Positions 5,878 through 62,907 of a stretch of DNA of 64,000 nucleotides are shown in pieces. Origin of the DNA: Clostridia bacterium (GTDB lineage: Bacteria; Bacillota; Clostridia; Oscillospirales; CAG-382). Positions within the stretch are counted from its first letter, which is position 1. Each line of letters starts with the position of its first letter. The position numbers and the translations under genes were made by a program. A model generated the notes under the pieces. It was not told the origin of the DNA, did no database searches, and was given only the letters and a program-made list of their open reading frames with translations. The stretch is taken from the NCBI GenBank assembly GCA_017397805.1, contig JAFQHW010000010.1, forward strand, positions 2,069 to 66,068. Direction: 5' to 3'.

Positions 5878-7245
5878 CTAAGAATTAAGCTCTTTCTCTA
5901 TAGATTCCATTTCTCGCCTGAAATTATCGGAAGTCTTCATTTTTTCCTCAATTTTCTGACAAGATTCCATAATCGTGCTGTGGTGTTTGCGGAGAACTGT
6001 TCCTATCTCCTTAAAAGTCATGTTAAGAAGGTTGCGCATAAGGTACGCGCAGATGTGGCGGGCGTTCTTAATTGAAGAGTCACGCTTACTGCCCGTTATA
6101 TCTTCCTTTTTTATCTCGTAGCGCATGGAAATATACTTTAATATCTTCTCGGAATTTACGCTGTCTTCCTCCGCTTTTTTAAGGTATTCGGAAAGCACTC
6201 TCTTCGCCATGGCAAAGCTTATTTTTTCACCGCCTATAAGACTGTGGGCTTTGAGGGTTTTTATTGCGCCTTCTATCTGTCTGATGTTGGTTTTTATGTT
6301 TTCTGCAAGATACTGCAAAACGTCGTTGGGTATATCTACCCCGAAAGACTCTGCCTTTCTTTTAAAGATTGCCTGCCTTAATTCCTCATCCGGCGGCTGA
6401 ATGTCTATAACACCGCCTGCGGAGAAACGGGAGGTCAAGCGCTTGTCTATATCCTGAAGCTCCGAAGGCTGCTTGTCCGACGCGAAAACTATCTGTTTAC
6501 CCTTATTGTACAACGCCTCAAAGGTATGGAACATCTCCTCCTGTACCGCGTGCTTGCCCTTTAGGAACTGAATATCGTCTATCAGCAAAAAGTCCAGATT
6601 ACGGAACTTGGACCTGAACTCCATAGGGTCCTTCTTTTTTGCTATGCTTTCGATAAGTAAGTTGGTAAAGGCTTCACAAGTTATGTAAACCACTTTAAAA
6701 TCCGGCTTATTTTCAAGTATATCGTTTATTATTGCAAACAGTAAATGGGTCTTACCCAAGCCGGAGGGACCGTATAAGAACAGAGGGTTATAAAATTCAG
6801 CCGGATAGCGGCAAGCCATAAGGCTGGTTTCGTAGGCTACGCGGTTGGAAGAGCCTACCACAAAGTTCTCGAAGGTATAAGCGGGGTTTACCATGGGAAG
6901 TTCCTCAAGCCTTCTTGCCCTTGCTTCCTCCTCTTTTTTCTTCTCTAACTCCTCTTCTCTTTTCTTCTCGTCCTCTTTTTCTATTTCCGCGCGGGTGCGG
7001 AACACAAGAGTTACGTCATCTCGCTCCAGCTCTATCTCAAAAGCCTCGGTCAGATCGTCCACGTAAGAGGTCAAAACCTTGTTACGCTTAAAATCATTCT
7101 CACATATAAGAGTAACGGTGCCGCCGTCAATACTTTGAACCGTCATGGGTTTTATCCAGAGGTTCATGGTAATATCAATATAATCAAGCTCTTCCTCAAG
7201 GTAATCCAAAACGCCTTGAAAAATAGTTTCTTTACTTAAACCCAT
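5878..7245 (-). CDS. dnaA: Chromosomal replication initiator DnaA
   Basis: 455 aa. AAA+ Walker A GPSGLGKTHLL, box VII, and the C-terminal DNA-binding motif IARHICAYLMRNLLNMTFKEIG. Confidence 0.97.
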   Translation of the reverse strand: MGLSKETIFQGVLDYLEEELDYIDITMNLWIKPMTVQSIDGGTVTLICENDFKRNKVLTSYVDDLTEAFEIELERDDVTLVFRTRAEIEKEDEKKREEELEKKKEEEARARRLEELPMVNPAYTFENFVVGSSNRVAYETSLMACRYPAEFYNPLFLYGPSGLGKTHLLFAIINDILENKPDFKVVYITCEAFTNLLIESIAKKKDPMEFRSKFRNLDFLLIDDIQFLKGKHAVQEEMFHTFEALYNKGKQIVFASDKQPSELQDIDKRLTSRFSAGGVIDIQPPDEELRQAIFKRKAESFGVDIPNDVLQYLAENIKTNIRQIEGAIKTLKAHSLIGGEKISFAMAKRVLSEYLKKAEEDSVNSEKILKYISMRYEIKKEDITGSKRDSSIKNARHICAYLMRNLLNMTFKEIGTVLRKHHSTIMESCQKIEEKMKTSDNFRREMESIEKELNS

Positions 7246-10473: not shown

Positions 10474-12621
10474 TTATTTTCCGTTTCGTATCTCTTTCTC
10501 TGCGGAATTAAATATTTCCTGCGCGGCTTCAGTGCTTACTGCCTCAGCAAAGAGGCGGAATCCACCGCCGTTAAGGGGAATAACCGTTACGCTTCCGCGC
10601 TTATAATGAAGCATTACCCCTTCACCGCCGCGGCCAACGGTGCCCTTGTTATGCAGTCTGTCCATGGTTTCCGCCTTCATATCCTCGTCGCAAATGCAAT
10701 TTTTTGATTCTATAACACGCTTGGGGATTTCCCCGTAAAGCTCCGACACGGTCTTTTTAAGCTTTAGGGAGCTTTCCAAGGCTTTAAGCACCAAGGCGTT
10801 GCCGTCAAAGCTCCAAAAACAGCGGCTTGCCGCCTCACGGCTTCTGCCCGTGGCTTCGCCGTAAAATACTGGCTTACAGCCTGATTTTTCTACCGCTTCC
10901 TCCACGAAGCGAGGACATAGAGTGGGCAAAGCCACCTCCCCGTCGGCACCCTTGGCGGCGATACATAAAAGTGACCAGAATCCGCACTCAGTTTGGTCGG
11001 ACAAGCGCGCCTCCGCGTATAATCCGTCGGCGGAAACGAAAAATACGTCTCTGTCACTACCCGTACCGTATTCCACCTCGGCACCCATTTTTGAAGCTAC
11101 CGAATATAAAAATTCCGAGGCGGGATTCTTATCCCCAACGTAAAACTTTGCCCCTCTGAGGCTTTCCACCGTATGGGTAAGACGGGCGGCATAGCGGAAT
11201 TTTGGCGCGTCGTCACCGTCAAGTGTCAGTATTTCACCTGCGGAAACGGTACTGGGTACGGGACGCGCCAATGCCGCCTCCAAGGCGCGCTCCTCCTTAC
11301 CCGTAGGGGGCAGACCGTCACCGTCAAAAACGGTAATATGGGCGATGCCGTTGTTAACACCCACCACCACGGAATAAGAAAGACCGTATTCCACTGCGGA
11401 AAAGGATGCCAAGGCACCAAAACCCTCCCCTAAATCGTAGGCTCTGCCGCCGTAGATACGCACACCGCACAGAATACTGTCGGAAAGCGCCTTGGCTTCA
11501 CTGCTTCCGTCGGAAAAAACGCCGATGGCAGAGCCTGCACCGGCGGTATAAGCCAAGGCACCGCCTAAGCGTGAAGTCAGCTCACCGCCTATATAACTGC
11601 CGTATTTGCCGCTTATTTTGCCACCCTCTATATGTCTTTTTCTTATATCACCGAATATAACGCTTCTCATTACTCTCGTCCCCTTTTCTATCATCAGTCC
11701 CGATTTAAGCACCGTACCGCCTGCAATATAGGCGCCGTCACCGATGACCGTACCGCCGCCGATAACGCACCCCATACCTATAAACGCACCCTTGCCTACG
11801 TGCACGTTCTCGCAAAGGATACTGCCGTAAACGGCGGCACCGCTTTCCACGAACGCGCCGTCAAAAAGGATGGCGCCCTCCACTGCCGTATCCTGCTCGT
11901 ACTCACTCTTGCCGAAAAGCACGTTTTTGACCTTGCCCGCCTGTCTGAAGCAACAGTTATAATAGCTTTCTATATCACCTATATCGCACCAATAGCCTTG
12001 CTCCTCTATACAGTGGAGGGGTATCCCCTCTGCCATCAGCCGCGGAAACAGGTCAGCGGCAAAATCCCTCTGTCCCTCGCCGATAAAGGGCAATATTTGG
12101 GGCGAAAGCACGTAAATGCCCGTGCTGACCAGATTGGTAAGGGTTCTGCCCCAGGAGGGTTTTTCCACAAAGCCTTGGATAATACCGTTTTTTACATAGA
12201 CGGTGCCGTATTCCGTGGGATGGCTTACGCGCTTGCAGACGATGCTGAGAACTGCGCCCGAAGCCTTGTGGCGCTTCATAATCTCGCCGAAATCAAAATC
12301 GCAAACGGTGTCACCGCTGACTACCAAAAAGCAGTCGTCAAAGCCTGCGGCGGCGTTTTTTACGCAACCGGCGGTGCCCAGCGGCATATTCTCCCTGAAA
12401 TATTTAATTTCCGCACCCTGCACGGGATAGGCTTCGATTTGCTCTGCCTTGTACATGGTGGCAACGGATATTTCCTTCGCCCCCGCCGCCGTAAGCTGTT
12501 TTATCAGCTTTCCGTAAACGGTGCCGCCCTCTATGGGCAGAAGTGGTTTTGGGCGGGTTTCGGTAATGGGTGATAATCGCTTGCCGTAGCCTCCCGCAAG
12601 CACAACCGCGTATTTTAACAA
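10474..12621 (-). CDS. Sugar-phosphate nucleotidyltransferase fused to a left-handed beta-helix and a PGM/PMM-like C-terminal region
   Basis: N-terminus (M)LKYAVVLAGGYGKRL...TRPKPLLP is an NTP_transferase. Hexapeptide repeats GAFIGMGCVIGGGTVIGDGAYIAGG follow. The C-terminal half resembles phosphomannomutase architecture. The track start at 12696 is a TTG inside a terminator hairpin. I prefer the TTG at 12619-12621, which has an AAGGGAGG RBS 10 nt upstream. Confidence 0.8.
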   Translation of the reverse strand: MLKYAVVLAGGYGKRLSPITETRPKPLLPIEGGTVYGKLIKQLTAAGAKEISVATMYKAEQIEAYPVQGAEIKYFRENMPLGTAGCVKNAAAGFDDCFLVVSGDTVCDFDFGEIMKRHKASGAVLSIVCKRVSHPTEYGTVYVKNGIIQGFVEKPSWGRTLTNLVSTGIYVLSPQILPFIGEGQRDFAADLFPRLMAEGIPLHCIEEQGYWCDIGDIESYYNCCFRQAGKVKNVLFGKSEYEQDTAVEGAILFDGAFVESGAAVYGSILCENVHVGKGAFIGMGCVIGGGTVIGDGAYIAGGTVLKSGLMIEKGTRVMRSVIFGDIRKRHIEGGKISGKYGSYIGGELTSRLGGALAYTAGAGSAIGVFSDGSSEAKALSDSILCGVRIYGGRAYDLGEGFGALASFSAVEYGLSYSVVVGVNNGIAHITVFDGDGLPPTGKEERALEAALARPVPSTVSAGEILTLDGDDAPKFRYAARLTHTVESLRGAKFYVGDKNPASEFLYSVASKMGAEVEYGTGSDRDVFFVSADGLYAEARLSDQTECGFWSLLCIAAKGADGEVALPTLCPRFVEEAVEKSGCKPVFYGEATGRSREAASRCFWSFDGNALVLKALESSLKLKKTVSELYGEIPKRVIESKNCICDEDMKAETMDRLHNKGTVGRGGEGVMLHYKRGSVTVIPLNGGGFRLFAEAVSTEAAQEIFNSAEKEIRNGK

Positions 12622-12688
12622 AAGACTTGCGCCTCCCTTTATGGTTTGAGATAAGTTTTTGCAAAATTCTACAATTTTATGCACAAAA

Positions 12689-13019
12689 AATCCCAAGTGC
12701 TCGTTTTGAACACTTGGGATTTCAGACCGCTGACAAAGGCACAGAACACGAAAAAGAAAAAATACTACTATTTTAAGGTAGAAAATTCAGGGGAAATCCC
12801 TGAATTTTCTGCTTTTTATTATAGTTTTTCGTTCAAAACGAACCTCGGCTCACAGTACCGTTCGGGGTCCCCGTTACGAACGAAGTGAGTAATGGGGTGG
12901 CATAACAGCTATCGCCTCGGTTCGTCTTGTCTGCACTCTTTCTCAGCACTCTGCCAAGCTGATGACAAACTTTGTCATCAGCTTGAAATCCCAAGTGTTC
13001 GTTTTGAACACTTGGGATT
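12689..13019. repeat. MITE-like non-coding element, copy 1 (core 12723-12986) bracketed by two copies of a 33-bp terminator hairpin
   Basis: The hairpin aatcccaagtg(c/t)tcgttttgaacacttgggatt occurs at 12689-12721 and 12987-13019. The core is about 95% identical to 61412-61636 in its left 40 bp and right roughly 115 bp. No reading frame is conserved. Confidence 0.75.
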
Positions 13020-13035
13020 TTTGAATTGTTATATC

Positions 13036-14547
13036 TTATTTGCTTGCTTCTTCGCTTGTATCTTCTGCGTTGTTATCGCTTAAAGCTACAACCTTATAAG
13101 CGTCCTCGCCGCCGAAGGCTTTAAGGGTGGGCATAAAGTTCTTTCTTTCCTCTTGGATGCCCTGAAGGGTACCTGAGGTGTTAAACATTGTACTGTAGGT
13201 GTAGAATACGAAGCCCTCGTTATTACCGGTGGTTTCCAAGAACTCAAGCTGGCGCTTGGTAACGTCCTTGTTGGTAGCGTATTCCTTAAAGGCTTCCTGA
13301 CCGCTGTCCTTTATTCTGTAGATACCGATACCGATTATAAGTCTTACGGCATCGCTGGTGCACAAATCCATCCAAGCCTTGGTGCACACGTCGAACTTAC
13401 AGCTGTTTGTGGGATGCTCAAAGCCCCAATAAACCTGAGGAACCAAGTAGTCACAGTAACCCTCGGTGCTGCCCCAGCTATATACGTCTGCAAAGAGCGC
13501 GTTCATGTTGTTGCTTATGTTACCTGCGGGGGAGATACCGAACCAAATGGTTTCGTCAACGGCTTTAACTGCATCGTACATACCCTTAACGAGGCTGTTA
13601 ACCTGGTCAAGACGGTACTGACGGCGGTCCAGCAATTCGTTGCCGGTTATGTTGTATTCTTCCGCAACCTGAGTCCAGTGAGCGTCGTCAAAGCTATCTT
13701 CCATGGTGGGATAGAAATAGTCGTCGATATGTACTGCATCTACGTTGTAGTTGGTGCATATCTCGGTAACACCGTTCCAAACGAGCTCTTTGTTCTCCTG
13801 AACGCCGGGGATAAGGTAGTAAAGACCGTCGTATTCGGAAAGGTTGGAAGCTCTCTTAGCCTCGTCCTTATACCACTGAGTCAAGGGGTACTGATCGCCC
13901 ATAATGTTAAGGTTGGGGCCTGCGGTTAAGCGCATGGGATTTACCCAAGCGTGGAAGGAAAGACCGTAGGAGTGAGCTATCTCGATGAATATCTTGAGCA
14001 TATCGTACTCGAACTCGTTACCGTATTTACCTACCGTAAAGTGAGAAGGAGCGTAAAATTCAGAGGGATAGAAGCTATCGCCGTTGGGACGCACCTGAAC
14101 GATTATGGTGTTAAAGCCTGCGTCTGCAATACCCTTACAAACCTTGGTTATCATGCGGGTATAGTTTTCTTCGGGTTTTTGACCGTTACCGCCTTTGTAG
14201 ATGCTGGTCATGCTGAACTGGTCAAGCCAGATACCGCGCATACTTTCGTAGTTGACGCTTACGTATTCGGGGTCGCGCTGTGCGCTGCCGTCGTCAGCGG
14301 TATCGGAGAAGGTGTCGGCAGGTATCAAATGAAGCTTGCTTGTTTCTTCGGGTTGACTGCTTTCGTCATCGGGTTGGGAAATAAGCTCGGAAATAAATTC
14401 GGAAACGTCGCTTACCTCGGTATTTTCGCCTGAAACGTCGGGGGTACTGCTTGTGCCTTCCTCGTTCTTCTTACCGCAGGAAGCTGTGGAAACAACGAAA
14501 GCTAACGCAAGCAAAAGAGCAAGTAAAGCCTTAATTCTTCTTGTCAT
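13036..14547 (-). CDS. GHL10 (DUF187, YngK/DigH-like) glycoside-hydrolase-like lipoprotein, paralog 1
   Basis: 503 aa. Lipobox LAFVVSTASC. Family motifs GFNTIIVQVRPNGDSFYPSEFY, AHSYGLSFHAWVNPMRL, VDAVHIDDYFYP and ISPAGNI...VPQVYW. Confidence 0.8.
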   Translation of the reverse strand: MTRRIKALLALLLALAFVVSTASCGKKNEEGTSSTPDVSGENTEVSDVSEFISELISQPDDESSQPEETSKLHLIPADTFSDTADDGSAQRDPEYVSVNYESMRGIWLDQFSMTSIYKGGNGQKPEENYTRMITKVCKGIADAGFNTIIVQVRPNGDSFYPSEFYAPSHFTVGKYGNEFEYDMLKIFIEIAHSYGLSFHAWVNPMRLTAGPNLNIMGDQYPLTQWYKDEAKRASNLSEYDGLYYLIPGVQENKELVWNGVTEICTNYNVDAVHIDDYFYPTMEDSFDDAHWTQVAEEYNITGNELLDRRQYRLDQVNSLVKGMYDAVKAVDETIWFGISPAGNISNNMNALFADVYSWGSTEGYCDYLVPQVYWGFEHPTNSCKFDVCTKAWMDLCTSDAVRLIIGIGIYRIKDSGQEAFKEYATNKDVTKRQLEFLETTGNNEGFVFYTYSTMFNTSGTLQGIQEERKNFMPTLKAFGGEDAYKVVALSDNNAEDTSEEASK

Positions 14548-14565
14548 GTTAAAATTCCTTTCAGT

Positions 14566-15936
14566 TTATTGTTCGTTTTTAAGAAGGGGCAAGAAGTTTT
14601 CAAGCTCCTCTGTTATCTTACCGTTATACTCACCGCTGTAAATATCGTACATAGAGCAGTAATCAAACATGATAAAGCCTTCTGCCACGTCAAAATCATA
14701 TGTAAACTCAAGTATGCGCTTGATGTTATCCTTATACAGATACCAACCCGGGTCGCTTTCGGTAAGGGTGGGGCTTACCGTGCGGTAGAGGCCTATGCCC
14801 AGTACCAATTTAACGCTGTCGCATCTTATAAGGTTTGCCCAGTTGATGGAGCATATATCAAACTTCGCAAAATCGCGGTAGTAATCAAAGCTCCAATAAA
14901 CCTGAGGCGCTATATAGTCGATATATCCCGGCTGAGAGCACCAGGTATCAATATCGGCGGAAAGATATCCGCGGTTGTTTTCGATATTACCTGCGGGTGA
15001 GATACCGAAAAGCAAGTCGGGATGGACCGCGTGGATGGCGTCGTACATCCCCTTAACCAGGCTGTTAACGCTGTCGTAACGGAACTGCTTTAAGGTTCTG
15101 CCGTTTGCCAGCTCGTTAAACGCCTTGGTATCAAACTCTTCCGTAACGCCCGAGGGATAGAAATAGTCGTCGATATGGATGCCGTCAATATCGTAGTTAT
15201 TGCATATTTCCACGGCACCATCGATAACCAACTGCTGAACCTCTTCATAGGCAGGGTTTGCGTAATATCTGCCGTCGATGGCGATTATGTAATCCCCTTC
15301 CTTGTTGTTGAACCATTCCTTGATAGCGTAGTTATCGGGGACGGACACTATCTGGCCGGCCAGAAGCAGTCTGTAAGGGTTAAGCCAGGCTTGAAGCGAT
15401 ATATTGTGCTTATGAGCTATATCACAGAAGATCTCCAAGGGGTCGTACTCAAAAACGCTGTCGTAATCGCTTACCGCGTAGCGGGAGGGCGGATAAAGCT
15501 CAGAGGGATAAAAACTGTCCCCATGGCCTCTCACCTGCAAGAACAGAGTGTTGTAGCCGTCCCTTTCCAAGTTAGAGCAGATCTGCTCCACCAATCGGGT
15601 ATAATCGGCTTCATCTCTTTGCTTGCCGCCGCTGCGGAACAAGCACTCGGCACTGTACTGATAAAGCCAAATGCCCTTCATATACTCGTAGTTAAGCGGG
15701 GTGTGTCCTGTAGGCATCGTTTTCTCCTCGTTACTTTCTTCCGTACCCTTGCTTTCCTCAAGGCTTTCCTCGCCGCTTTCCTCTTGGGGTACGGCGCTTT
15801 CCTCGCGGATTAACTCGGATGACGCGTCCTCCAAAGCAGAGTCTGCACCGCCCTTTGCTTCCTTTTTACAGGAAGCAAGGACGGATAAAAGCATAACGCA
15901 TACTAAAAACAAGGATAGAAGTCTTTTAATGTTCAT
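14566..15936 (-). CDS. GHL10-like lipoprotein, paralog 2
   Basis: 456 aa. Lipobox LSVLASC and the same motif set (GYNTLFLQVRGHGDSFYPSELY, IDGIHIDDYFYP, APQVYWSFD). Confidence 0.8.
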   Translation of the reverse strand: MNIKRLLSLFLVCVMLLSVLASCKKEAKGGADSALEDASSELIREESAVPQEESGEESLEESKGTEESNEEKTMPTGHTPLNYEYMKGIWLYQYSAECLFRSGGKQRDEADYTRLVEQICSNLERDGYNTLFLQVRGHGDSFYPSELYPPSRYAVSDYDSVFEYDPLEIFCDIAHKHNISLQAWLNPYRLLLAGQIVSVPDNYAIKEWFNNKEGDYIIAIDGRYYANPAYEEVQQLVIDGAVEICNNYDIDGIHIDDYFYPSGVTEEFDTKAFNELANGRTLKQFRYDSVNSLVKGMYDAIHAVHPDLLFGISPAGNIENNRGYLSADIDTWCSQPGYIDYIAPQVYWSFDYYRDFAKFDICSINWANLIRCDSVKLVLGIGLYRTVSPTLTESDPGWYLYKDNIKRILEFTYDFDVAEGFIMFDYCSMYDIYSGEYNGKITEELENFLPLLKNEQ

Positions 15937-15966
15937 TAACGTAAGCTCCTTTCGGGGCGATGGGAT

Positions 15967-17892
15967 TTACCAATCTTTTACCATACCTATGTAGTTGGCA
16001 ATCTCCTGAGAGAAGGCGGAAGAATAACTGCCAACGGTTGTATTGATATTATATGTGCTTTCATACTTGAAAAATACCCAACCGGAAGCTCTGTCGTGAT
16101 TCTTTAGGTAGGTAAGCATACGGGCGATGTTATCCTTGCGGTTATACCAACCGGGGTCGGTCTCGTTGTAGGAAGCATTATTTTCTGCTCTGTAGGTAGG
16201 TATGCCTATAATCAAGTCAACCTCATCGGCGGTACACATTGCCGCCCAGTTTTCGGTACATACGTCAAATTTTGCAGGGTTCCATGAATAATCAAAGCTC
16301 CAATAAACCTGAGGACAGATATAGTCCACGTAACCGGGAGTGGAGCACCAGGTTTTTACGTCTGCGCAGAGGTAACCGGTCTGGTTGTTATCGATGTTAC
16401 CCGCGGGGGAGATACCGAATATCAAATCGTCGTTATACTCGTGCATTGCGGAGTAAATGTCACGCAACAAGGTGTTTACCTGCTGACGGCGGAACTCTTT
16501 TCTTACGGAAAGGCTGGAAGCGGAGCCGTAAGAGGAGCCGTAAAGGTTAAACGCCGCCTGGTCGAAGGCAAGGTCTGTGGATTCGGAGTCAATGCTTACG
16601 TAGAAATAGTCGTCGAAATGGATACCGTCTATATCGTAGTTTTCGCAGATCTCCATAACGCCGTCGATAATAAGCTGTCTTGCTTCGGGATAAGCGGGGT
16701 TAAGATAATACTTACCGCTTACGTTTACTATGTAGGTGCCGTTTTTTGAGCTGTCGTTATACCACTGTTTAAGGGTGAACTGAGAATTTACTGCGCTTAA
16801 CTGAGAGGAGGACATAAGACGCATGGGGTTAAGCCAAGCGTGTACGGAAATATCCTTCTCGTGTGCTATCTCCAGGAACACCTCTAAGGGGTCGTATGCA
16901 AAGGCGCTGTTGGTACTGCCGTAGCTTGTACCGCTTACTGCGTAAGGCGAAGGAGAGAAGTACTGAGATGGGTACAAAGAGTCGCCGTTGGGACGCATCT
17001 GAAGCAGAACGGTGTTGAAGCCGTCCTTAACCATATTGTCAACTACCGTCTGTACGTACTGTCTGTAGGAGCTTTCGCTTCTCTGAGAAGTACCGCTTTT
17101 GAACATACCGCCGGAAGTATAGTACTGGAACAACCATACACCCTTCATTCTGTCATAGTTGAGGGGCATATACTTAGCGGGTGCGGTAACTACTACGGTA
17201 ATCTTAGCGCCCTCGCCCGCCTTGGTGCCGGCAGAGGTCTTTTGGTACACTACCTGACCGGGAGTGCCTTCGGAAACGTAACGCACGTCTGCAACGAATC
17301 CCGCGCTTTGCAACGCTTGCTCTGCTTCTCTTTCGGTCATACCGCTGAGGTTGGGAACGGAAGCGGTAGAGGGTGCGCTTTGAACCAAAAGCTGGCAAGC
17401 CTCCAAGTGCTTGATGGTGAGATAGTCGGCAGAGGACATAATGCCGTCGCCCGTAAGCTCAGCCGCCAACGCCTCAAGGGCGGAGGAAGACCTGGCGTTA
17501 ACCAAAATAGCTTTTGCTATCTCTACGTCGTTATTATCCGTTGCGCCGTCGCCCGTGGTATCACCCGTTACGACTACGGTAACGGTAACACCGTTTACGG
17601 TAACGGTACAGCCTGTGGTAAGCTTTTCCGCAGAGGAAAGCGCGGCGCCGCTTTTGCTTTTAACGGTTATTGCGGTGGTGCCGTAGTAATAAGCAAGCTC
17701 GGCAACGGTGGTGTTGACCTCTACACCCTTCAAATAACTACCGTCCAAGGTGTAGGGGCAACGGGAGGGCATATAGAACTCGCTGTCGGCGGCGGAAACA
17801 GTTACGGTGCTTTCAGCCTCCGTGGGGAAGTAAAAACCGCCTACGGCAAATACGAATGCCAATACTAATGCTAAAAATCTTTTGGTTTTCAT
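15967..17892 (-). CDS. GHL10-like secreted protein with dockerin-like repeats and a PASTA domain, paralog 3
   Basis: I prefer the start at MKTKRFLALVL (GGAAGGAG RBS). Dockerin-like repeats are GDTTGDGATDNNDVEIAKAIL and LTGDGIMSSADYLTIKHL. PASTA-like segment VPNLSGMTEREAEQALQSAGFVADVRYV...AKITVVV, then the GHL10 catalytic region. Confidence 0.8.
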   Translation of the reverse strand: MKTKRFLALVLAFVFAVGGFYFPTEAESTVTVSAADSEFYMPSRCPYTLDGSYLKGVEVNTTVAELAYYYGTTAITVKSKSGAALSSAEKLTTGCTVTVNGVTVTVVVTGDTTGDGATDNNDVEIAKAILVNARSSSALEALAAELTGDGIMSSADYLTIKHLEACQLLVQSAPSTASVPNLSGMTEREAEQALQSAGFVADVRYVSEGTPGQVVYQKTSAGTKAGEGAKITVVVTAPAKYMPLNYDRMKGVWLFQYYTSGGMFKSGTSQRSESSYRQYVQTVVDNMVKDGFNTVLLQMRPNGDSLYPSQYFSPSPYAVSGTSYGSTNSAFAYDPLEVFLEIAHEKDISVHAWLNPMRLMSSSQLSAVNSQFTLKQWYNDSSKNGTYIVNVSGKYYLNPAYPEARQLIIDGVMEICENYDIDGIHFDDYFYVSIDSESTDLAFDQAAFNLYGSSYGSASSLSVRKEFRRQQVNTLLRDIYSAMHEYNDDLIFGISPAGNIDNNQTGYLCADVKTWCSTPGYVDYICPQVYWSFDYSWNPAKFDVCTENWAAMCTADEVDLIIGIPTYRAENNASYNETDPGWYNRKDNIARMLTYLKNHDRASGWVFFKYESTYNINTTVGSYSSAFSQEIANYIGMVKDW

Positions 17893-17921
17893 AAAATAGC
17901 TCCTTCCGAAGCGTGGTGTTT

Positions 17922-19436
17922 TTACCACTCTTTAATCTTACCTATATAGTTGTCTATTTCCTTGGAGTAGTTGGTTGCGTAGCCGCCGGTGAACAGATTA
18001 TAGGTATTACCGTAAGCGAAGAAGATAAAGCCTTCAGATCTGTTGTGAAGCTTTACGTAGTCAAGCATTCTTGCTATGTTGTCATCATAGTTTTTCCAAC
18101 CCACGTCAGAACCGGAGGGTGCGGAGTTAGAAGCCAGATAGGTGGGGATACCGATGTACAGCTTCACGGAGTTTGAGGTGCAAAGGTTTGCCCAAGCGCT
18201 TACGCAGTTATTGAACTTGGAGGAGTAGGTGGGATGGTCAAAGCTCCAATAAACCTGAGGACAGATATAGTCCACGTAACCGGGGGCGGAGCACCAAGTT
18301 CTTACGTCTGCGCAAAGGTAGCCTGCTGTGTTGGTGGAAATATTACCTGCAGGGGAGATACCGAACACCAAATCGTCGTTATACTCGTGGATAGCGGAGT
18401 AAACGTCCTTTACCAAGGTGTTAACCTGTTGGCGGCGGAAATCCTTACGGAAGGTAAGGTTGGTTTCGGTGCCTGCGGAATTGCCGTAAAGCTCGTAAGC
18501 TTTCTGGTCAAATGCCAAGTTCAAGGATTCGGGGTTTATGTCTGCATAGAAATAGTCGTCAAAATGTACACCGTCAACGTCATAGTTTTCGCACATTTCC
18601 ATAACGCCGTCTATAACAAGCTGTCTTGCTTCGGGATATGCGGGGTTAAGGTAGTAATAACCGTCGTAAGCAACGATATAGGTGCCGTTCTTTTCGGAAT
18701 CGTTATACCACTCACCGAGAGTGTACTTGGTGGGTACGTTTACTATTTGTTCGGTCTTCATAAGACGCATTGGATTTATCCAACCGTGAACGGAAAGATT
18801 CTTTGCGTGTGCTATTTCCAGGAATATCTCCAACGGGTCGTAAGCAAACTCACCGTCGTACGCTACGCCTACGGAAGGAGAGGGGGGATAGATCTCGGAG
18901 GGATAAAGAGAGTCGCCGTTGGGACGCATCTGCAAAATAACGGTGTTAAAGCCGTCACGGCTTAAATTATCCACCATCTTCGTAGCAAGCGTCCTGAAGG
19001 ACTCTTCGCTTCTCTGGGTGCCGGCGTTGTTGAAAAGACTGCCTGCGGAGAACTGGTCAACCCAAACGCCCTTCATGTTATCGTAGTTTATGGGGCCGTC
19101 AACGGGAGTACTGCTGCCGTTGGGGTCCAGGCTGTCTATCATACCTGCATCGAATTTAAGTATCTGCGCCGCATCAAGGCTGTTAACGGAGCCGTCGCCG
19201 CTAACGTCACCGCGAGTTAAAGCGGCACTGTCAAGGGTGATCATCATAGCGTCGTACTTAAGCACTTGCGCCGCATCAAGGCTGTCCACAGAGCCGTTGC
19301 CGTTAACGTCACCGTACAACACGTCGGCGGCGGAAGCTTCAATGGAAACGCTTTGGGAAGGGAAGCAAAAGCTGCCCGCCAAAACAGCCAAGGCGATAAC
19401 CATGGTCACAAACTTTAAAGCCTTTGTATTTCTCAT
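17922..19436 (-). CDS. GHL10-like secreted protein with an N-terminal type I dockerin, paralog 4
   Basis: Signal peptide, then dockerin repeats YGDVNGNGSVDSLDAAQVLKY / RGDVSGDGSVNSLDAAQILKF, then a GHL10 region very similar to paralog 3. The start is the ATG at 19434-19436 or the TTG at 19442. Confidence 0.8.
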   Translation of the reverse strand: MRNTKALKFVTMVIALAVLAGSFCFPSQSVSIEASAADVLYGDVNGNGSVDSLDAAQVLKYDAMMITLDSAALTRGDVSGDGSVNSLDAAQILKFDAGMIDSLDPNGSSTPVDGPINYDNMKGVWVDQFSAGSLFNNAGTQRSEESFRTLATKMVDNLSRDGFNTVILQMRPNGDSLYPSEIYPPSPSVGVAYDGEFAYDPLEIFLEIAHAKNLSVHGWINPMRLMKTEQIVNVPTKYTLGEWYNDSEKNGTYIVAYDGYYYLNPAYPEARQLVIDGVMEMCENYDVDGVHFDDYFYADINPESLNLAFDQKAYELYGNSAGTETNLTFRKDFRRQQVNTLVKDVYSAIHEYNDDLVFGISPAGNISTNTAGYLCADVRTWCSAPGYVDYICPQVYWSFDHPTYSSKFNNCVSAWANLCTSNSVKLYIGIPTYLASNSAPSGSDVGWKNYDDNIARMLDYVKLHNRSEGFIFFAYGNTYNLFTGGYATNYSKEIDNYIGKIKEW

Positions 19437-29391: not shown

Positions 29392-29401
29392 GGAGAAATG
29401 C

Positions 29402-29507
29402 GTTGTGCTTGCACACAACGAAGCGATATAAATCCCTTACGGGATTTGCGATATGCCTGAAGGCGCGATATGCGTTACACGCGCGGTATGTTGCCTTCGG
29501 CAACGAG
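29402..29507. repeat. GCGATAT/hairpin array, copy a
   Basis: gttgtgcttgcacaac, then GCGATAT-aaatcccttacgggattt-GCGATAT-gcctgaaggc-GCGATAT-gcgttacacgc-GCGGTAT-gttgccttcggcaac. Confidence 0.8.
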
Positions 29508-30433: not shown

Positions 30434-30781
30434 ATGGCAAAATTTCAAGATAAACTGATTGCTGACGGCTATTGCGATAATCGCGGTGCAGGTTTTTGCG
30501 CAAACGCTACTAGATTGCCCGAAGGTGAATACGGCATAGTGGCTCTTTGTGTAAACGGAAGCACGCTAAATCTGTTTGATGTGGATATAAGAAGCAATAT
30601 TGGTGAATTGTTGTATTCGGTGGATTTGAAGCAAATTGAAAACCTGAAGATTCGGGCAGGAATCTTCAGACAGGTATTGAAGTTTGAATATAACGGTTCT
30701 ACCTATTCTTTTACGAACTTTATCGGCGTAAAGCCTGCGTTGAAAGTGATTGAAGAAGAGGCAAGCAACCGAGGAGAGTAG
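30434..30781 (+). CDS. Hypothetical protein (possibly bacterial PH-like fold)
   Basis: 115-aa ORF with a GGAGG RBS. No motif that I recognise with confidence. Confidence 0.5.
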   Translation: MAKFQDKLIADGYCDNRGAGFCANATRLPEGEYGIVALCVNGSTLNLFDVDIRSNIGELLYSVDLKQIENLKIRAGIFRQVLKFEYNGSTYSFTNFIGVKPALKVIEEEASNRGE

Positions 30782-30784
30782 TGT

Positions 30785-30905
30785 TCTTTAGAACCCTGCT
30801 CGACGATATAAATCTCTTGCGGGATTTGCGATATGCCTGACGGCGTGATATGCGTTACACGCGCGATATGTTGCTTTACGGCATCGCGAAGCGATATGTT
30901 GCTGA
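30785..30905. repeat. GCGATAT/hairpin array, copy b
   Basis: ...cGATATAaatctcttgcgggattt-GCGATAT-gcctgacggc-GTGATAT-gcgttacacgc-GCGATAT-gttgctttacggcatc-GCGAAGCGATAT... Confidence 0.8.
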
Positions 30906-31794: not shown

Positions 31795-31932
31795 ACCAAC
31801 GAAGCGATATAAATCCCCTATGAGCAGGGTTATTTAGAACCCTGCTCGGCGATATAAATCCCTTACGGGATTTGCGATATGCCTGAAGGCGCGATATGCG
31901 TTACACGCGCGCTATGTTGTCTTCGGCAACGA
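31795..31932. repeat. GCGATAT/hairpin array, copy c
   Basis: caacgaaGCGATAT-aaatcccc..gagcagggttatttagaaccctgctc-gGCGATAT-aaatcccttacgggattt-GCGATAT-gcctgaaggc-GCGATAT-gcgttacacgc-GCGCTAT-gttgtcttcggcaac. Confidence 0.8.
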
Positions 31933-42210: not shown

Positions 42211-43555
42211 AAAGGAATGGCGCTTTGAAGGCGCGTTTACTGATATAAGTGATAAAGGCTTCGGCGTGTGCCGCGCTCCCGACGGGCGCACTGCCTTCGT
42301 TGCCGATGCCTTGACGGGTGAGGAAGGTACCGTTAAGGTCATTAAGGAATATAAAAATTACGTTATAGGGAAAATGGAGGAGCTGAAGGTTGCTTCCCCC
42401 CATCGAATCCAACCGGACTGCACCGTCTTTCGCCGTTGCGGCGGTTGTATCTACCGCCATTTGGACTACCAAGCCGAGCTTGAGTACAAGCGCAAGGGCG
42501 TTGAGGAGGTTCTAAAGCGAGTGGGAGGTGTTTCCGTTTCCGTGCCCATGCCTTTAAGCGGAAAGGAAAAAGAGTACCGCAACAAGCTTCTTTTGCCCGT
42601 GGGCAAGCGTGACGGTGAGCTTGTCTGCGGTTTTTACGCTCCTCACAGCCACAGTATCATCCCTTGTGATAAGTGTCTTCTGCACACCGATGATTTTTCA
42701 CAGATAAGCGCGGGCCTTTTGCAATTGCTGAAGGGCAAAAACCCTTACGATGAGGCCACGGGCAAGGGACTGCTTCGCCATATATATCTGCGACGCAACG
42801 GCAAGGGCGAGTTTTGCGTTACCGTCATAGTTAACGGCAAGCGCCTACCCTCCGCAGAAGAAACGGCAGAGCTGTTGATGGCACGTTTTCCGCAGGTTAA
42901 AAGCTTCTACGTTAACCTCAACGTTTCCCGCACCAATAACGTAACGGGTCCCGATTGGGTACATATAAAGGGTGAAAAACTGCTTACCCAAGAGCTTTTG
43001 GGCAAGACCTTCAAGATGTCGCCCGCGGCTTTCTTCCAGGTCAATACGGAAATGACGGAAAAGCTTTACGCAACTGCCGCTGAAATGGCGGATATTCGGA
43101 AGGGAGAAACCGTTTTCGATATGTATTGCGGTATCGGCACCGTGGGACTTTGTCTGTGTCCCGACGGTGTGGAGCTCTGCGGCGTGGAGATAGTGCCCGC
43201 CGCCATAGAAAACGCAAGGCAAAACGCCATCCTTAACGGCAGGAGCGAAAAGGACACGAAGTTTTTCGCTTGCGATGCCGCCGAGGGGTTTGAACGGTGC
43301 TACAATGCCTTCGGTAAAAAACCCACCACGGTATTGCTTGACCCGCCCAGAGCGGGACTTGCCCCCTCACTTACGGAAACTTTGATAAAAGAGCGTCCCG
43401 AAAAGATCGTGTATATTTCCTGCAACCCCGCCACCTTGGCGCGTGACGTGGCACTGCTTAAAGACGGTGGATATAGCTTTGCGGATATTGCTACGGTGGA
43501 TATGTTCCCCCGTACCGGGCATGTTGAATCTATTGTCTGCTTGCGCAGACGATAG
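42203..43555 (+). CDS. rlmD: 23S rRNA (uracil-C5)-methyltransferase, RumA/RlmD family
   Basis: 450 aa. TRAM domain, Fe-S cysteines C..FRRCGGC, SAM motif DMYCGIGT, and catalytic ISCNP. Confidence 0.85.
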   Translation: MSKKEWRFEGAFTDISDKGFGVCRAPDGRTAFVADALTGEEGTVKVIKEYKNYVIGKMEELKVASPHRIQPDCTVFRRCGGCIYRHLDYQAELEYKRKGVEEVLKRVGGVSVSVPMPLSGKEKEYRNKLLLPVGKRDGELVCGFYAPHSHSIIPCDKCLLHTDDFSQISAGLLQLLKGKNPYDEATGKGLLRHIYLRRNGKGEFCVTVIVNGKRLPSAEETAELLMARFPQVKSFYVNLNVSRTNNVTGPDWVHIKGEKLLTQELLGKTFKMSPAAFFQVNTEMTEKLYATAAEMADIRKGETVFDMYCGIGTVGLCLCPDGVELCGVEIVPAAIENARQNAILNGRSEKDTKFFACDAAEGFERCYNAFGKKPTTVLLDPPRAGLAPSLTETLIKERPEKIVYISCNPATLARDVALLKDGGYSFADIATVDMFPRTGHVESIVCLRRR

Positions 43556-43727
43556 ATTCAACAATGAATTGCGCCGACGCATGAATTGGCTTTGCCATGA
43601 TTTGCCTGACGGCATGAATTGCGCCTATGGGCGCATAAAGGATAAGGCGCAATTCAATTCATGGAGCGAAGCGAGAAATCATGATGTATCGGCATCAATT
43701 CACGACACGTAGTGTCAATTCATAAAA
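43555..43727. repeat. ATGAATT/hairpin array (4 forward 7-mers, then 3 reverse-complement 7-mers); first 84 bp is direct-repeat copy A
   Basis: ATGAATT-gcgccgacgc-ATGAATT-ggctttgcc-ATGATTT-gcctgacggc-ATGAATT-gcgcctatgggcgc ... AATTCAATTCAT ... AATTCA ... AATTCAT. It ends right at the RBS of the four-helix-bundle gene. Confidence 0.8.
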
Positions 43728-44183: not shown

Positions 44184-44267
44184 GATTCAACAACAAATTG
44201 CGCCGACGCATGAATTGGCTTTGCCATGATTTGCCTGACGGCATGAATTGCGCCTATGGGCGCATAA
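44184..44267. repeat. ATGAATT/hairpin array, 84-bp direct-repeat copy B
   Basis: Nearly identical to 43555-43638, differing only in caatgaatt versus caacaaatt near the 5' end. Confidence 0.85.
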
Positions 44268-45586: not shown

Positions 45587-45661
45587 TGGTGACCCGTAGG
45601 AGAATCGAACTCCTGTTACCGCCGTGAAAGGGCGGTGTCTTAACCGCTTGACCAACGGGCC
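45587..45661 (-). tRNA. tRNA-Glu (anticodon UUC), CCA encoded
   Basis: The reverse complement GGCCCGTTGGTCAAGCGGTTAAGACACCGCCCTTTCACGGCGGTAACAGGAGTTCGATTCTCCTACGGGTCACCA folds as a cloverleaf and closely resembles Bacillus tRNA-Glu. Confidence 0.92.
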
Positions 45662-45679: not shown

Positions 45680-45756
45680 TGGTAGCGGAAGTCGGATTTG
45701 AACCAACGACCTGCCGGGTATGAACCGGATGCTCTAGCCAACTGAGCTATTCCGCC
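45680..45756 (-). tRNA. tRNA-Met (anticodon CAU, elongator-like; tRNA-Ile2 not formally excluded), CCA encoded
   Basis: The reverse complement GGCGGAATAGCTCAGTTGGCTAGAGCATCCGGTTCATACCCGGCAGGTCGTTGGTTCAAATCCGACTTCCGCTACCA folds as a cloverleaf. It lacks the initiator hallmarks. Confidence 0.88.
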
Positions 45757-58404: not shown

Positions 58405-61373
<2,969 letters not shown>

Positions 61374-61389: not shown

Positions 61390-61658
61390 AACTGCAGTTC
61401 ACACTGCAGTTCAGACCACTGACAAAGGCACAGAGCACGAAAAAGAAAACAAACAAATATAATGAAGTAGAAAAATAAGGGGGCAAGCCTCCTTATTTTT
61501 CTGCATTTTGTTATATTTTTTCGTTCAAAACGAACCTCGGCTTGCAGTACTCAGTACAGCTATCGCCTCGGTTCGTCTTGTCTGCGCTCTTTCTCAGCAC
61601 TCTGCCAAGCTGATGACAAGGCTTGTCATCAGCTTGAACTGCAGTTCACACTGCAGTT
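61390..61658. repeat. MITE-like non-coding element, copy 2 (core 61412-61636) bracketed by two copies of a 22-bp terminator hairpin
   Basis: aactgcagttcacactgcagtt occurs at 61390-61411 and 61637-61658, perfectly identical. The core is homologous to 12723-12986. Confidence 0.75.
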
Positions 61659-61673
61659 TTTTATCTTTACTTT

Positions 61674-62837
61674 TTAATACTTCACGGCATCTAAAATCAA
61701 AGCCGCTTCTCTTTTGGTAAGGGTTTCGGAGGAATTTTCAAACCAAGCACTGCTTATGGCAAGGCTTCCTTCGTCCCCCGTGGCACGCTCTGCCATCACC
61801 AAGGCATCCTCTAATTTAATGCTCTCGTTGGGACGGAAGGAGTCGCTTTCGGCTTTAACTATCCCGTTGGTTACCGCCGCCTCCAGATACAGCCGCTTGC
61901 CGCGGCTTTGGCTTGCGGTGTCCGTAAAGACGTTGGAGGGATACAGCTTGTCCTCCACCTTTATCCCCGCGGCGCTTACCAGCATTACCGCAAAGTCGAT
62001 GCGGCTAACCTCCTCCGCGGGGGAGAAATAGTAGCTGTCGCCGATAAGTCTGTAGCTCATAACTTGGTCTTCGGACATACGAATCGCCGCCAAGTGCTCC
62101 TGCTCACCCACCATATCCGCAAAATATATGCCGCCGTCGTTCTCGGCAACGCTTACGGTGGCTTTGGCAAGCTCGCTTTTTTCGCCCCAATCGTTTACTG
62201 CGTAGTAGGTAAAGCTATCCTCACCGCAAAATCCCGTTTTGGGGGTATAGGTTACCGTATCGTCATTCAGGCTTATTCTGCCGCCCGTGGGGTATTGCTC
62301 TATAACGTACTCCAAGTCATCCCCGTCGGGGTCGTAGGCGCCAAGGGCGGCGGTAACGCTTACGTTTTTGTAGGTTTTAAGGGTTGCGGATACGGCAATG
62401 GGCGCAAAGCGCGGTGTGGCGGAATAGCGTATCACGCAGGCAAGCTCCCGGCTTTCCTTGCCGTTTTTCGTTACCGTAAAGCTAAAGCTGCAGTTGTCTG
62501 CAAATTCCTGTGAGGGCAAAAAGCTAAGCAGCTCCACCCCCGCGGCGGAAAGTGTTTGGTCGGGTATGGCATCTACCCCCGCCACCTTTAAAACACCGCA
62601 ACCGATAGGGGGTAGCGATTTTAGGGTTAGGTAGTCAAACTCGGTGCCCACCAGCTCCATCACCTCGCCGCAGTTAAAGTTTACGCGCTCGCCGCCCACA
62701 CTGCACTTTATAAGCCGCGTTTCGTTGCTTATAACCTCCAAGGCAGGGGAAAGCTGTGCCGCTTCTGCCTTCACGGCGGTAACGGTAACCGCAATCAGGC
62801 AAAGGGAAAACACGATCAAACGGAATAATTTTCTCAT
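61674..62837 (-). CDS. Secreted protein with cadherin/Ig-like repeat and two SLH-like domains
   Basis: Start MRKLFRLIVFSLCL (GGAGG RBS). YDPDGDDLEYV...TVTYTPKTGFCGEDSFTYYAVND is a cadherin-like repeat. The C-terminal YFADMVG...FSPAEEVSRIDFAVML and VFTDTAS...FRPNESIKLEDALVM are SLH-like. Confidence 0.65.
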   Translation of the reverse strand: MRKLFRLIVFSLCLIAVTVTAVKAEAAQLSPALEVISNETRLIKCSVGGERVNFNCGEVMELVGTEFDYLTLKSLPPIGCGVLKVAGVDAIPDQTLSAAGVELLSFLPSQEFADNCSFSFTVTKNGKESRELACVIRYSATPRFAPIAVSATLKTYKNVSVTAALGAYDPDGDDLEYVIEQYPTGGRISLNDDTVTYTPKTGFCGEDSFTYYAVNDWGEKSELAKATVSVAENDGGIYFADMVGEQEHLAAIRMSEDQVMSYRLIGDSYYFSPAEEVSRIDFAVMLVSAAGIKVEDKLYPSNVFTDTASQSRGKRLYLEAAVTNGIVKAESDSFRPNESIKLEDALVMAERATGDEGSLAISSAWFENSSETLTKREAALILDAVKY

Positions 62838-62907
62838 AACAACGCCTCCTTTTGTGGTATAGTTTGCCACGGCGACTCAGCTTTTATACCAAATATTTCA
62901 AATATAC

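Follow-up and report, generated by a model that had tools for sequence, protein, structure and literature searches.

A small multi-copy mobile element of uncultured gut Clostridia is flanked by duplicated terminator stem-loops

To our knowledge, very few transposons have been documented to choose their targets by DNA shape. The closest described systems are IS1272 and TnSha1 of staphylococci, members of the IS1182 family that target terminator stem-loops of 21-85 bp by structure and without sequence specificity (PMC5678879, PMC4923244). IS1272 deletes the target stem-loop and leaves no duplication, while a route that duplicates the entire stem-loop appears as pathway b of the model by Wan et al. 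for IS1272, where it is hypothetical (PMC5678879). TnSha1 was found to hit the same terminators repeatedly and in both orientations (PMC4923244). Moreover, palindrome targeting by some IS1182-family members is ascribed to Siguier et al. 2015, in the form in which that work is cited in both papers (PMC5678879, PMC4923244).

Here we describe a small non-coding element that lies in two copies in the window (the whole stretch of 64,000 nucleotides of DNA that was analysed), each copy between two direct copies of a hairpin. The features of copy 1 and its locus are as follows.

12688-12722, unstranded: left target-hairpin copy, 35 bp, from repeat and inverted-pair searches; upstream A-run kept, element left end directly after
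12723-12985, plus strand: element copy 1, 263 bp, non-coding, CAGACC...CAGCTTG, a long variant with a nested ~40-bp module
12723-12745, plus strand: left terminal inverted repeat CAGACCGCTGACAAAGGCACAGA, kept in 65 copies, pairing with 12930-12953 in the consensus fold
12775-12815, plus strand: internal terminator-shaped hairpin (hpI) from the terminator scan, made of an A-rich stretch, a stem-loop and a T-run, with compensatory changes at 7 of 11 pairs
12828-12929, plus strand: long-range helix with arms at ~12831-12849 and ~12914-12929, enclosing a small inner hairpin and the nested module; covariation
12863-12899, plus strand: nested hairpin module, 37 bp, CGGGGTCCCCGTTACGAACGAAGTGAGTAATGGGGTG, missing from copy 2 and belonging to a separate small repeat family
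12930-12953, plus strand: inverted repeat TCTGCACTCTTTCTCAGCACTCTG on the inner right side, pairing with the left end (helix 2)
12955-12985, plus strand: terminal right-end hairpin CAAGCTGATGACAA-nnn-TTGTCATCAGCTTG with a perfect 14-bp stem, its outer arm being the right terminus of the element
12986-13020, unstranded: right target-hairpin copy, T-run kept downstream, stop codon of the GHL10-family gene 15 bp away
13036-14547, minus strand: GHL10-family lipoprotein gene, right neighbour of copy 1
Start near 12621, minus strand: nucleotidyl-transferase gene, left neighbour of copy 1

The initial annotation of this DNA had noticed a 33-bp hairpin repeated directly around copy 1. The direct repeat holds, but its length had to be revised: it measures 35 bp (12688-12722 versus 12986-13020), matches at 34 of 35 positions and leaves a core of 12723-12985. 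The right hairpin has a perfect 15-bp stem, while in the left one a single C breaks a pair. Both neighbouring genes lie on the minus strand and are thus in tandem, not convergent. The core ends are indeed imperfect inverted repeats, but these are placed otherwise than proposed: the left end (12723-12745) pairs best with the internal segment 12930-12953, and the extreme right end (12955-12985), previously read as the plain inverted-repeat partner, is a perfect hairpin of its own with a 14-bp stem. The coding capacity of copy 1 is limited to short spurious ORFs (53-69 aa). Among strain variants, every contig of sufficient length was filled and 100% identical at the copy 1 locus, with no empty site.

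Copy 2 and its locus comprise the following features.

60237-61373, plus strand: tgt, left neighbour of copy 2
61390-61411, unstranded: left target-hairpin copy, 22 bp, a minus-strand terminator by terminator scan
61412-61636, plus strand: element copy 2 of 225 bp (the most frequent size class), between convergent genes
61467-61504: internal terminator-like hairpin, by terminator scan
61637-61658, unstranded: right target-hairpin copy, a plus-strand terminator by terminator scan
61674-62870, minus strand: ORF, surface-protein gene, right neighbour of copy 2

Pairwise alignment, within-window BLAST and the repeat search all confirmed a second homologous core at 61412-61636 inside a wholly different pair of hairpins: copy 2 is bracketed by two perfect 22-bp copies of AACTGCAGTTCACACTGCAGTT in direct orientation, a hairpin that bears no relation to that of copy 1. 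Overall identity between the cores is 74%, rising to 84-95% in blocks; they differ by a ~40-bp indel, and no reading frame is kept from one to the other, just as had been claimed, since indels break all frames. At both window loci the A-run is found only with the left hairpin and the T-run only with the right one, again as first described, so that each direction of transcription still meets a complete terminator. An empty copy 2 site was not found in other strains, in which the DNA beyond the tgt stop codon is entirely different. Two metagenome scans, one aimed at an unoccupied site of copy 1 and the other at the hairpin of copy 2, each returned 0 matches in a collection from which the species is absent.

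The element is mobile and multi-copy. A scan of one genome per species with the right-end palindrome CTGATGACAA-NNN-TTGTCATCAG returned at least 94 stretches, four of which were chance matches in Proteobacteria, and placed the element at no fewer than 90 loci in eight uncultured gut or rumen Clostridia MAGs: RGIG1823 (at least 33 loci), SGB_3055 (at least 17), RGIG1907 and SGB_3215 (at least 13 each), with fewer loci listed in SGB_418, SIG636 (Oscillospiraceae), SGB_92 and RGIG6501. BLAST with both window cores yielded 65 complete copies of 219-306 bp among the matches listed. Truncated copies are also present, and many further copies are cut off at contig ends, contigs often ending inside the element. 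The element had no match by BLAST in plasmid and phage collections, scans of viral contigs gave nothing or chance coding matches only, and Rfam searches, both at the gathering threshold and at E<=10, placed no family on it.

A hairpin adjoins both sides of every copy with enough flank among the matches listed. To count as a strict duplication, a direct repeat had to abut the element at both ends, measure at least 15 bp and contain no more than 2 mismatches. By this measure, 37 of the 59 evaluable complete copies among the matches listed are bracketed by a duplication of 20-35 bp (median 25), while a looser comparison of the hairpins found 42 direct flank pairs, likewise among the matches listed. 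When left and right flanks were shuffled, 3 of 2000 pairs qualified, and those 3 came from orthologous loci. The flanking hairpins are unrelated from locus to locus, and the conserved part is the ~225-bp core. The earlier proposal that the flanks are the locus-specific target and the core the mobile part is thus supported by the unrelated hairpins, the shuffles and the empty sites described below; further copies with their own, different duplicated hairpins do exist, and a single flanking hairpin shared by all copies was not seen.

The duplicated segment is the stem-loop itself, with stems of 7-15 bp, loops mostly of 3-7 nt and 0-1 unpaired edge bases. Pairing beyond the repeat is impossible at 22 of the 37 duplications, and the rest leave out a few A-T pairs of the A- and T-runs. 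The segment mostly starts with A and ends with T; otherwise no fixed tetranucleotide flanks the insertions. At the 36 sites with evaluable gene context, the neighbouring genes are convergent (20 sites), tandem (15) or divergent (1). Given this position at gene 3' ends, the targets are terminators: the element sits at terminator hairpins, and the duplication spans the whole stem-loop. Since a full copy of the hairpin is left on each side, the site is picked by DNA shape and not by sequence.

Four sites are filled in one species and empty in others, each empty site consisting of one terminator hairpin of different sequence. Alleles within one species gave the most direct comparison. The contigs L116 and L118 encode an identical 520-aa GHL10 protein (P0005; these genes are homologues of the copy 1 neighbour). 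In L116 a single hairpin, AAGGCTTTTCGGCGTAATGCCGAAAAGCCTT, lies downstream of the GHL10 gene, while L118, with the same flanks bar a few SNPs, carries the hairpin, a 223-bp element and the hairpin again, a net insertion of 254 bp. Therefore the element inserted recently, duplicating a 31-bp stem-loop, and the insertion is polymorphic between strains of one species. Orthologous empty sites with a single hairpin, as the initial annotation had anticipated, were thus seen across species and, with the identical hairpin, between L116 and L118; an empty site with two hairpins was not seen. The terminator that follows the orthologous GHL10 gene is filled in L112, a third species, as well, with its own duplicated hairpin and in the same orientation to the gene as in the window. 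Moreover, other orthologous terminators are filled in two species each, in opposite orientations and with their own duplicated hairpins (for example L012 and L045; L064 and window copy 2; L022 and L091). We read such cases as independent hits on the same terminators.

Some flanks are exceptional. In about a fifth of the copies among the matches listed (~11 of 59), the left and right hairpins differ. Four of ~46 pairs (L023, L028, L032 and L053) have identical stems with the loop exactly reverse-complemented; loop inversion is a hairpin mutation known from plastid genomes. In L061, one hairpin is present in three copies around two elements. The contig L117 shares gene, hairpin and element with L118 and then runs on into another hairpin and other genes, which illustrates how differing left and right hairpins can arise. 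Exceptional flanks could stem from recombination between copies or from short-read mis-joins across the 225-bp repeat; contig ends inside the element are common, and coverage of one MAG is just ~1.5x.

Across copies the element has a constant order: the conserved left end CAGACCGCTGACAAAGGCACAGA, an A-rich stretch, a variable hairpin with a T-run, a T-rich stretch, the long-range helix, an inner hairpin, the internal inverted copy TCTGCACTCTTTCTCAGCAGTCTG and the terminal hairpin CAAGCTGATGACAA-nnn-TTGTCATCAGCTTG. In the predicted fold, the left end CAGACCGCTGACAAAGGCACAGA pairs with TCTGCACTCTTTCTCAGCAGTCTG over 19 pairs (99% of cells paired), forming the terminal-repeat helix. The GCTGA..CAA motif recurs at the extreme right terminus, and the termini are asymmetric, the common GCTGA motif beginning at a distance of 7 nt from the tip on the left and 4 nt on the right. 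Pairing in the variable internal hairpin, which scans as a terminator, is kept by compensatory changes at 7 of 11 pairs; the long-range helix contains a compensatory triple change (CAA/TTG to TGG/CCA) and other covariation; and the right-end hairpin (12955-12985 in copy 1) has compensatory changes at 2 pairs across copies. From this anatomy the element would also be predicted to bring its own internal bidirectional terminator. In longer variants, copy 1 included, a hairpin module of ~37 bp is nested inside the element at any one of three places, and the module occurs elsewhere in these genomes as well. A promoter scan detected no sigma-70-like site inside either window copy. A hammerhead-like CUGAUGA in the right-end hairpin proved, by eye, to be one arm of the perfect palindrome and was set aside.

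The predicted folding is strongly strand-dependent: the consensus fold energy is -76.2 kcal/mol for the minus strand versus -51.2 kcal/mol for the plus strand. In the minus-strand fold 98.3% of cells pair and 14 pairs carry compensatory changes, values reached by none of 500 shuffles. Furthermore, the same helices hold 194 wobble G.U pairs on the minus strand versus 27 on the plus strand, and the terminal-repeat helix alone 132 versus 1. This strand bias may hint at a single-stranded form; it is a hint and not a result, since the minus strand served for predicting the structure and the signal lies in only about 10 positions (~10 versus 4). Because double-stranded cut-and-paste gives no reason for such a bias, a single-stranded intermediate or a functional transcript stays a live rival to it.

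Solitary ends, hairpin repeats 0.3-7 kb apart, multi-copy ORFs, long inverted repeats of the window and single right-end arms were all searched for a mobilising partner. Across ~670 kb (the 94 scan loci plus the window), neither an autonomous element nor a transposase bearing these ends turned up, so that the longer relative sharing the core ends, which had been envisaged at the outset, did not come to light. Gut Clostridia are rich in transposases with DUF772 and DDE_Tnp_1_6 domains, but no connection of any of them to the element could be made. We compared the element with IS1272 from a staphylococcal plasmid, with a close metagenome relative of IS1272 (L120-L129) and with two clostridial IS1182-family members.

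The relative in L120-L129 lies between a bare A-run and a T-run, as replacement of a stem-loop predicts, and the staphylococcal-type IS1182 elements have terminator hairpins of their own just inside both ends. A terminator hairpin after the left end is common to our element, IS1272, ISClbu1 (Clostridium butyricum) and the IS in L120-L129, and in ISClbu1 as in our element the right end is a hairpin formed by the terminal repeat and an inverted copy of it. The terminal repeats of the two clostridial members are GGGGCTGTTGCAAAAG (an IS present in Subdoligranulum variabile and in pig-gut metagenomes) and GGGGCTGTATCAAAAC. Read inward, the right terminus of our element (CAAGCTGATGACAAGG) agrees with GGGGCTGTTGCAAAAG at 10 of 16 positions in register, a modest likeness noted post hoc, while the terminal repeats GAGTCTGGGACATAAA and CAGACCGCTGACAAAGG, compared between IS1272 and our element, have only ~10 of 17 positions in common, with one gap. 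The end motif GCTG-N(1-4)-CAAA is common to the element and the clostridial members including ISClbu1, as is the host group (Clostridia, Oscillospiraceae). Unlike the element, the clostridial members are autonomous, and none with exactly these ends was found among them. End motifs and architecture are thus suggestive of a link to the IS1182 family but not proof of one. Duplications of 0-60 bp are reportedly entered in ISfinder for the IS1182 family, so hairpin-length duplication may already have been seen in some autonomous members; at the insertions inspected here (the IS1272 relative, ISClbu1, and the Subdoligranulum and pig-gut IS), no duplication of that length was visible.

On balance we regard the element as probably, though by no means certainly, a non-autonomous MITE-like transposon that inserts by structure into intrinsic (Rho-independent) terminator stem-loops of any sequence. 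Attachment of its ends to the two strands would take place at both 5' feet of the stem-loop. The simplest geometry would be a palindrome extruded as a cruciform, which would bring both feet together in space; the target is presumed to take this shape. In linear terms the stagger would be as long as the entire hairpin (20-35 bp), and filling of the gaps by repair would leave a complete hairpin on each side, so that with staggered attack at both 5' feet the length of the duplication would follow each hairpin. Such a route would correspond to pathway b of the IS1272 model of Wan et al. (PMC5678879). We infer that the mobilising enzyme would be supplied in trans; it would most likely be a DDE transposase of the IS1182 family, since known members of that family target terminator hairpins by structure.

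Several observations sit uneasily with parts of this reading. The excess of G.U pairs on the minus strand and the compensatory pairing are not predicted by a double-stranded DDE mechanism. Also against it stand the asymmetric termini, the lack of an autonomous partner in ~670 kb, the modest and post hoc likeness of the terminal repeats, and the inspected IS1182-family members without hairpin duplication. Insertion with duplication, for its part, needs secondary events or assembly error to account for the ~11 copies with differing hairpins and the four with an inverted loop.

Among the alternatives, the one we rate as possible, at a low probability, keeps the element mobile and hairpin-targeting but moves it as strand-specific single-stranded DNA, through a structure-specific enzyme (HUH-type, integron-integrase-like or other) that docks on any stem-loop. 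It would account for the far better folding of the minus strand, for the near-complete pairing with its 14 compensatory pairs, for the one-sided wobble that is most extreme in the terminal-repeat helix, for the asymmetric termini with a perfect hairpin at the right end, and for the failure to find a DDE partner in ~670 kb. However, the known single-strand transposons (IS200/IS605, IS91) leave no target duplication, nor does integron recombination, and for a duplication a stagger has to be filled by repair synthesis; the count of wobble pairs has a partial bias, the helices having been found on the minus strand, with ~10 versus 4 independent positions; and orientation relative to the flanking genes has no matching bias. 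An unlikely variant is a mode not described so far, in which a folded minus-strand form would be integrated by a structure-specific enzyme at any terminator stem-loop or four-way junction cut at both feet; if true, the duplication would be set by DNA shape, and the mechanism would differ from DDE transposition of the IS1182 type as well as from every known single-strand transposon, the latter making no duplication. Selection for a function, with the element kept as a host-useful module (a structured ncRNA or a terminator/insulator cassette), appears improbable to us. It fits the strong covariation of the internal terminator-like hairpin (7 of 11 pairs), the conserved internal helices, the constant position at gene 3' ends and an orthologous terminator that is occupied in three species with one and the same orientation to the GHL10 gene; yet the element has no Rfam family and no promoter-like site inside, insertion is polymorphic between strains, truncated copies exist, and nested junk modules occupy three different internal positions. 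Moreover, function leaves the hairpin duplications unexplained, and an insertion event is needed anyway.

We give very little credence to the notion that the flanking hairpins belong to the element or are pre-existing pairs, with the duplication an illusion of gene conversion or site choice. The ~11 of 59 copies with differing hairpins and the three hairpin copies around two elements in L061 could be cited for it, but differing hairpins are explicable by inter-copy recombination or short-read mis-joins, each locus has its own unrelated hairpin, shuffling leaves almost no matching flank pairs, and empty alleles and orthologous sites carry exactly one hairpin; L116 versus L118 in effect refutes it. 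Least credible of all is a Cas1- or casposase-type integrase, a parallel drawn in the initial annotation. The likeness is only formal: in both, a palindromic repeat is attacked at staggered positions on its two sides and then duplicated. Here the duplication follows the length of the hairpin (20-35 bp) and is not fixed as a molecular ruler would make it, and no cas1-like multi-copy gene lies near any copy at the fetched loci. The analogy is also unnecessary, with a closer precedent in the IS1182 family members IS1272 and TnSha1 (PMC5678879, PMC4923244). Insertion guided by RNA (of the IS110 bridge or seeker type) was considered and rejected: the longest word common to a core and its own target averages 6.27 nt versus 6.26 nt for the cores of other copies. 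A 13-nt complementarity between 12831-12843 and the loop of the copy 1 hairpin was dismissed as a guide as well, the segment being part of the conserved core with no excess for its own target.

If the element is, as we prefer, a MITE-like transposon recognising terminator stem-loops by structure, the family provides natural evidence of ~40 independent events and of one pair of empty and filled alleles, and the hypothetical pathway b of structure-dependent transposition becomes directly testable. Both unidirectional terminators stay intact, and the insertion is in principle reversible by recombination between the hairpin copies. Such terminator-sparing insertion would explain how dozens of copies are carried at little harm to the host. 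Furthermore, the element breaks MAG assemblies at terminators and may promote rearrangements, and its paired hairpin copies offer an internal clock for the mutation of terminator hairpins.

In its size (219-306 bp), lack of coding capacity, terminal inverted repeats, locus-specific duplications and many dispersed copies, the element has the traits of a MITE. Like the classical bacterial MITEs (Correia, RUP, ERIC, bcr1), it is small, intergenic and high-copy, bears terminal inverted repeats, folds into a long hairpin and would be mobilised in trans. Classical MITEs make short, fixed duplications (TA, or 2-9 bp) and choose targets by sequence or loosely; here, by contrast, the duplication is 20-35 bp and set by the target stem-loop. 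The searchable literature held no description of a MITE with hairpin-length duplications. Identity with REP/REPIN (RAYT) repeats was rejected on the grounds that the flanking palindromes are unrelated between loci and that the conserved part is a 225-bp core and not a short palindrome. A PATE of the IS200/IS605 type was likewise rejected, given duplications of 20-35 bp and no fixed tetranucleotide beyond a loose A...T.

As with group IIC introns, IS1397/ISKpn1 and IS110/IS1111, extragenic hairpins and terminators serve the element as safe havens. Group IIC introns are ribozymes of >600 nt that insert after a hairpin without duplicating it; the element is too small, has no Rfam match (at gathering or E<=10) and duplicates the hairpin, so it is not one of them. 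IS1397 and ISKpn1 target the loops of REP sequences, IS1397 inserting in the loop with a 3-4 bp duplication, and IS110/IS1111 elements reside in REP or attC sites, IS110 using RNA guides and making no long duplication. A preprint likewise places IS110 in REP-like sites. CRISPR spacer integration and casposons resemble the element in outcome only, namely in a repeat duplicated by staggered integration at its borders; their stagger is fixed by sequence or ruler, and they need Cas1 and leader or tRNA-type sites, none of which was seen for the element.

The nearest relatives in behaviour are IS1272 and TnSha1, with which the element has in common terminator targets of many sizes and sequences that are recognised by structure, and repeated hits in both orientations. 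With IS1272 it further has in common the terminator hairpin just inside the left end and, as proposed chemistry, attack on the hairpin feet by the 3' ends of the element. IS1272 is ~1.9 kb long and encodes its transposase, while the element is 220-300 bp and non-coding. Above all, the stem-loop is removed by IS1272 and duplicated here: shape-based targeting, which destroys the terminator in the one case, can instead duplicate the whole stem-loop in the other.

Copy 1, the window copy (core 12723-12985) of the non-coding mobile element (MITE) that inserts in terminator hairpins, carries a nested hairpin module of ~37 bp, CGGGGTCCCCGYYRCGAACRAAGTGAGYRRTGGGGTG, which is a small repeat family in its own right, distinct from the MITE. 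Inside MITE variants the module occupied three different positions, while it was also found tandemly in arrays of intergenic repeats; moreover its stem covaried (TTGC/GCAA, TCAC/GTGA and CTAC/GTAG). The module and other features were located as follows (L-numbers denote fetched DNA stretches, most of them from related gut Clostridia MAGs carrying the element):

Window 12863-12899; L052:5400-5490 and 6490-6530; L009, L013, L039 and others: nested hairpin module
L052:5294-5329 and 6388-6423: 36-bp palindrome CATATTTTCTGCGGACATGTGCCGCAGAAAATATAC
Window 29396-29493, 30776-30873 and 31822-31919: small intergenic repeat family, 98 nt, three copies
Window 43555-43638 and 44184-44267: small intergenic repeat family, 84 nt, two copies
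Window 45590-45661 and 45683-45756: pair of adjacent minus-strand tRNA genes (Rfam)
Window ~13036-19400, directly right of copy 1: tandem array of GHL10-family (PF02638) lipoprotein genes

The two palindromes in L052, 1094 bp apart and flanking a minus-strand gene, are part of a ~140-bp repeat unit that was found in L009, L013 and L039 as well. The 98-nt family contains GCGATAT-type sub-repeats, and the 84-nt copies (98% identical) contain short hairpins spaced by ATGAATTG. Rfam, searched against the whole window, returned no match beyond the two tRNA genes. The GHL10-family array comprises at least four paralogous genes at a repeat spacing of 1.4-1.9 kb, and the element was present in the terminator behind the last gene of the array in three different species.

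Several element arrangements were unusual. In L061:1-1700 a 0.8-kb cassette of two genes separated two elements: the first element had hairpin A on both sides, and the second had hairpin A on the side facing the cassette and hairpin B on its far side; thus hairpin A occurs three times and brackets the cassette. Read by eye, one cassette gene encodes a protein with an XRE-type HTH and the other a DUF1273/YpsA-like protein. At L067:6168-6198 a lone 31-bp right-end hairpin (the terminal hairpin of the element), with an unrelated terminator hairpin on each side, may be a minimal derivative or remnant of the element. At L070:5821-5875 the right-end hairpin was followed immediately by the left end, a tail-to-head junction adjoining a truncated copy.

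Two further sets of sites concern the host hairpin itself:

L023:4597, L028:5588, L032:3173 and L053:72: flanking hairpin pairs with inverted loop
L120-L129 (IS1182-family IS, IS1272-related) and L119:1097-3050: autonomous elements between A-run and T-run

At the former four elements, the flanking hairpin copies shared identical stems while their loops were exactly reverse-complemented, suggesting either that terminator hairpins often mutate by inversion of the loop or that the inversion is a by-product of the insertion chemistry. The autonomous elements were bordered by a bare A-run and T-run, and thus the host stem-loop was lost. Immediately inside both ends they carried terminator hairpins of their own, which look as if they replaced the deleted host terminator.
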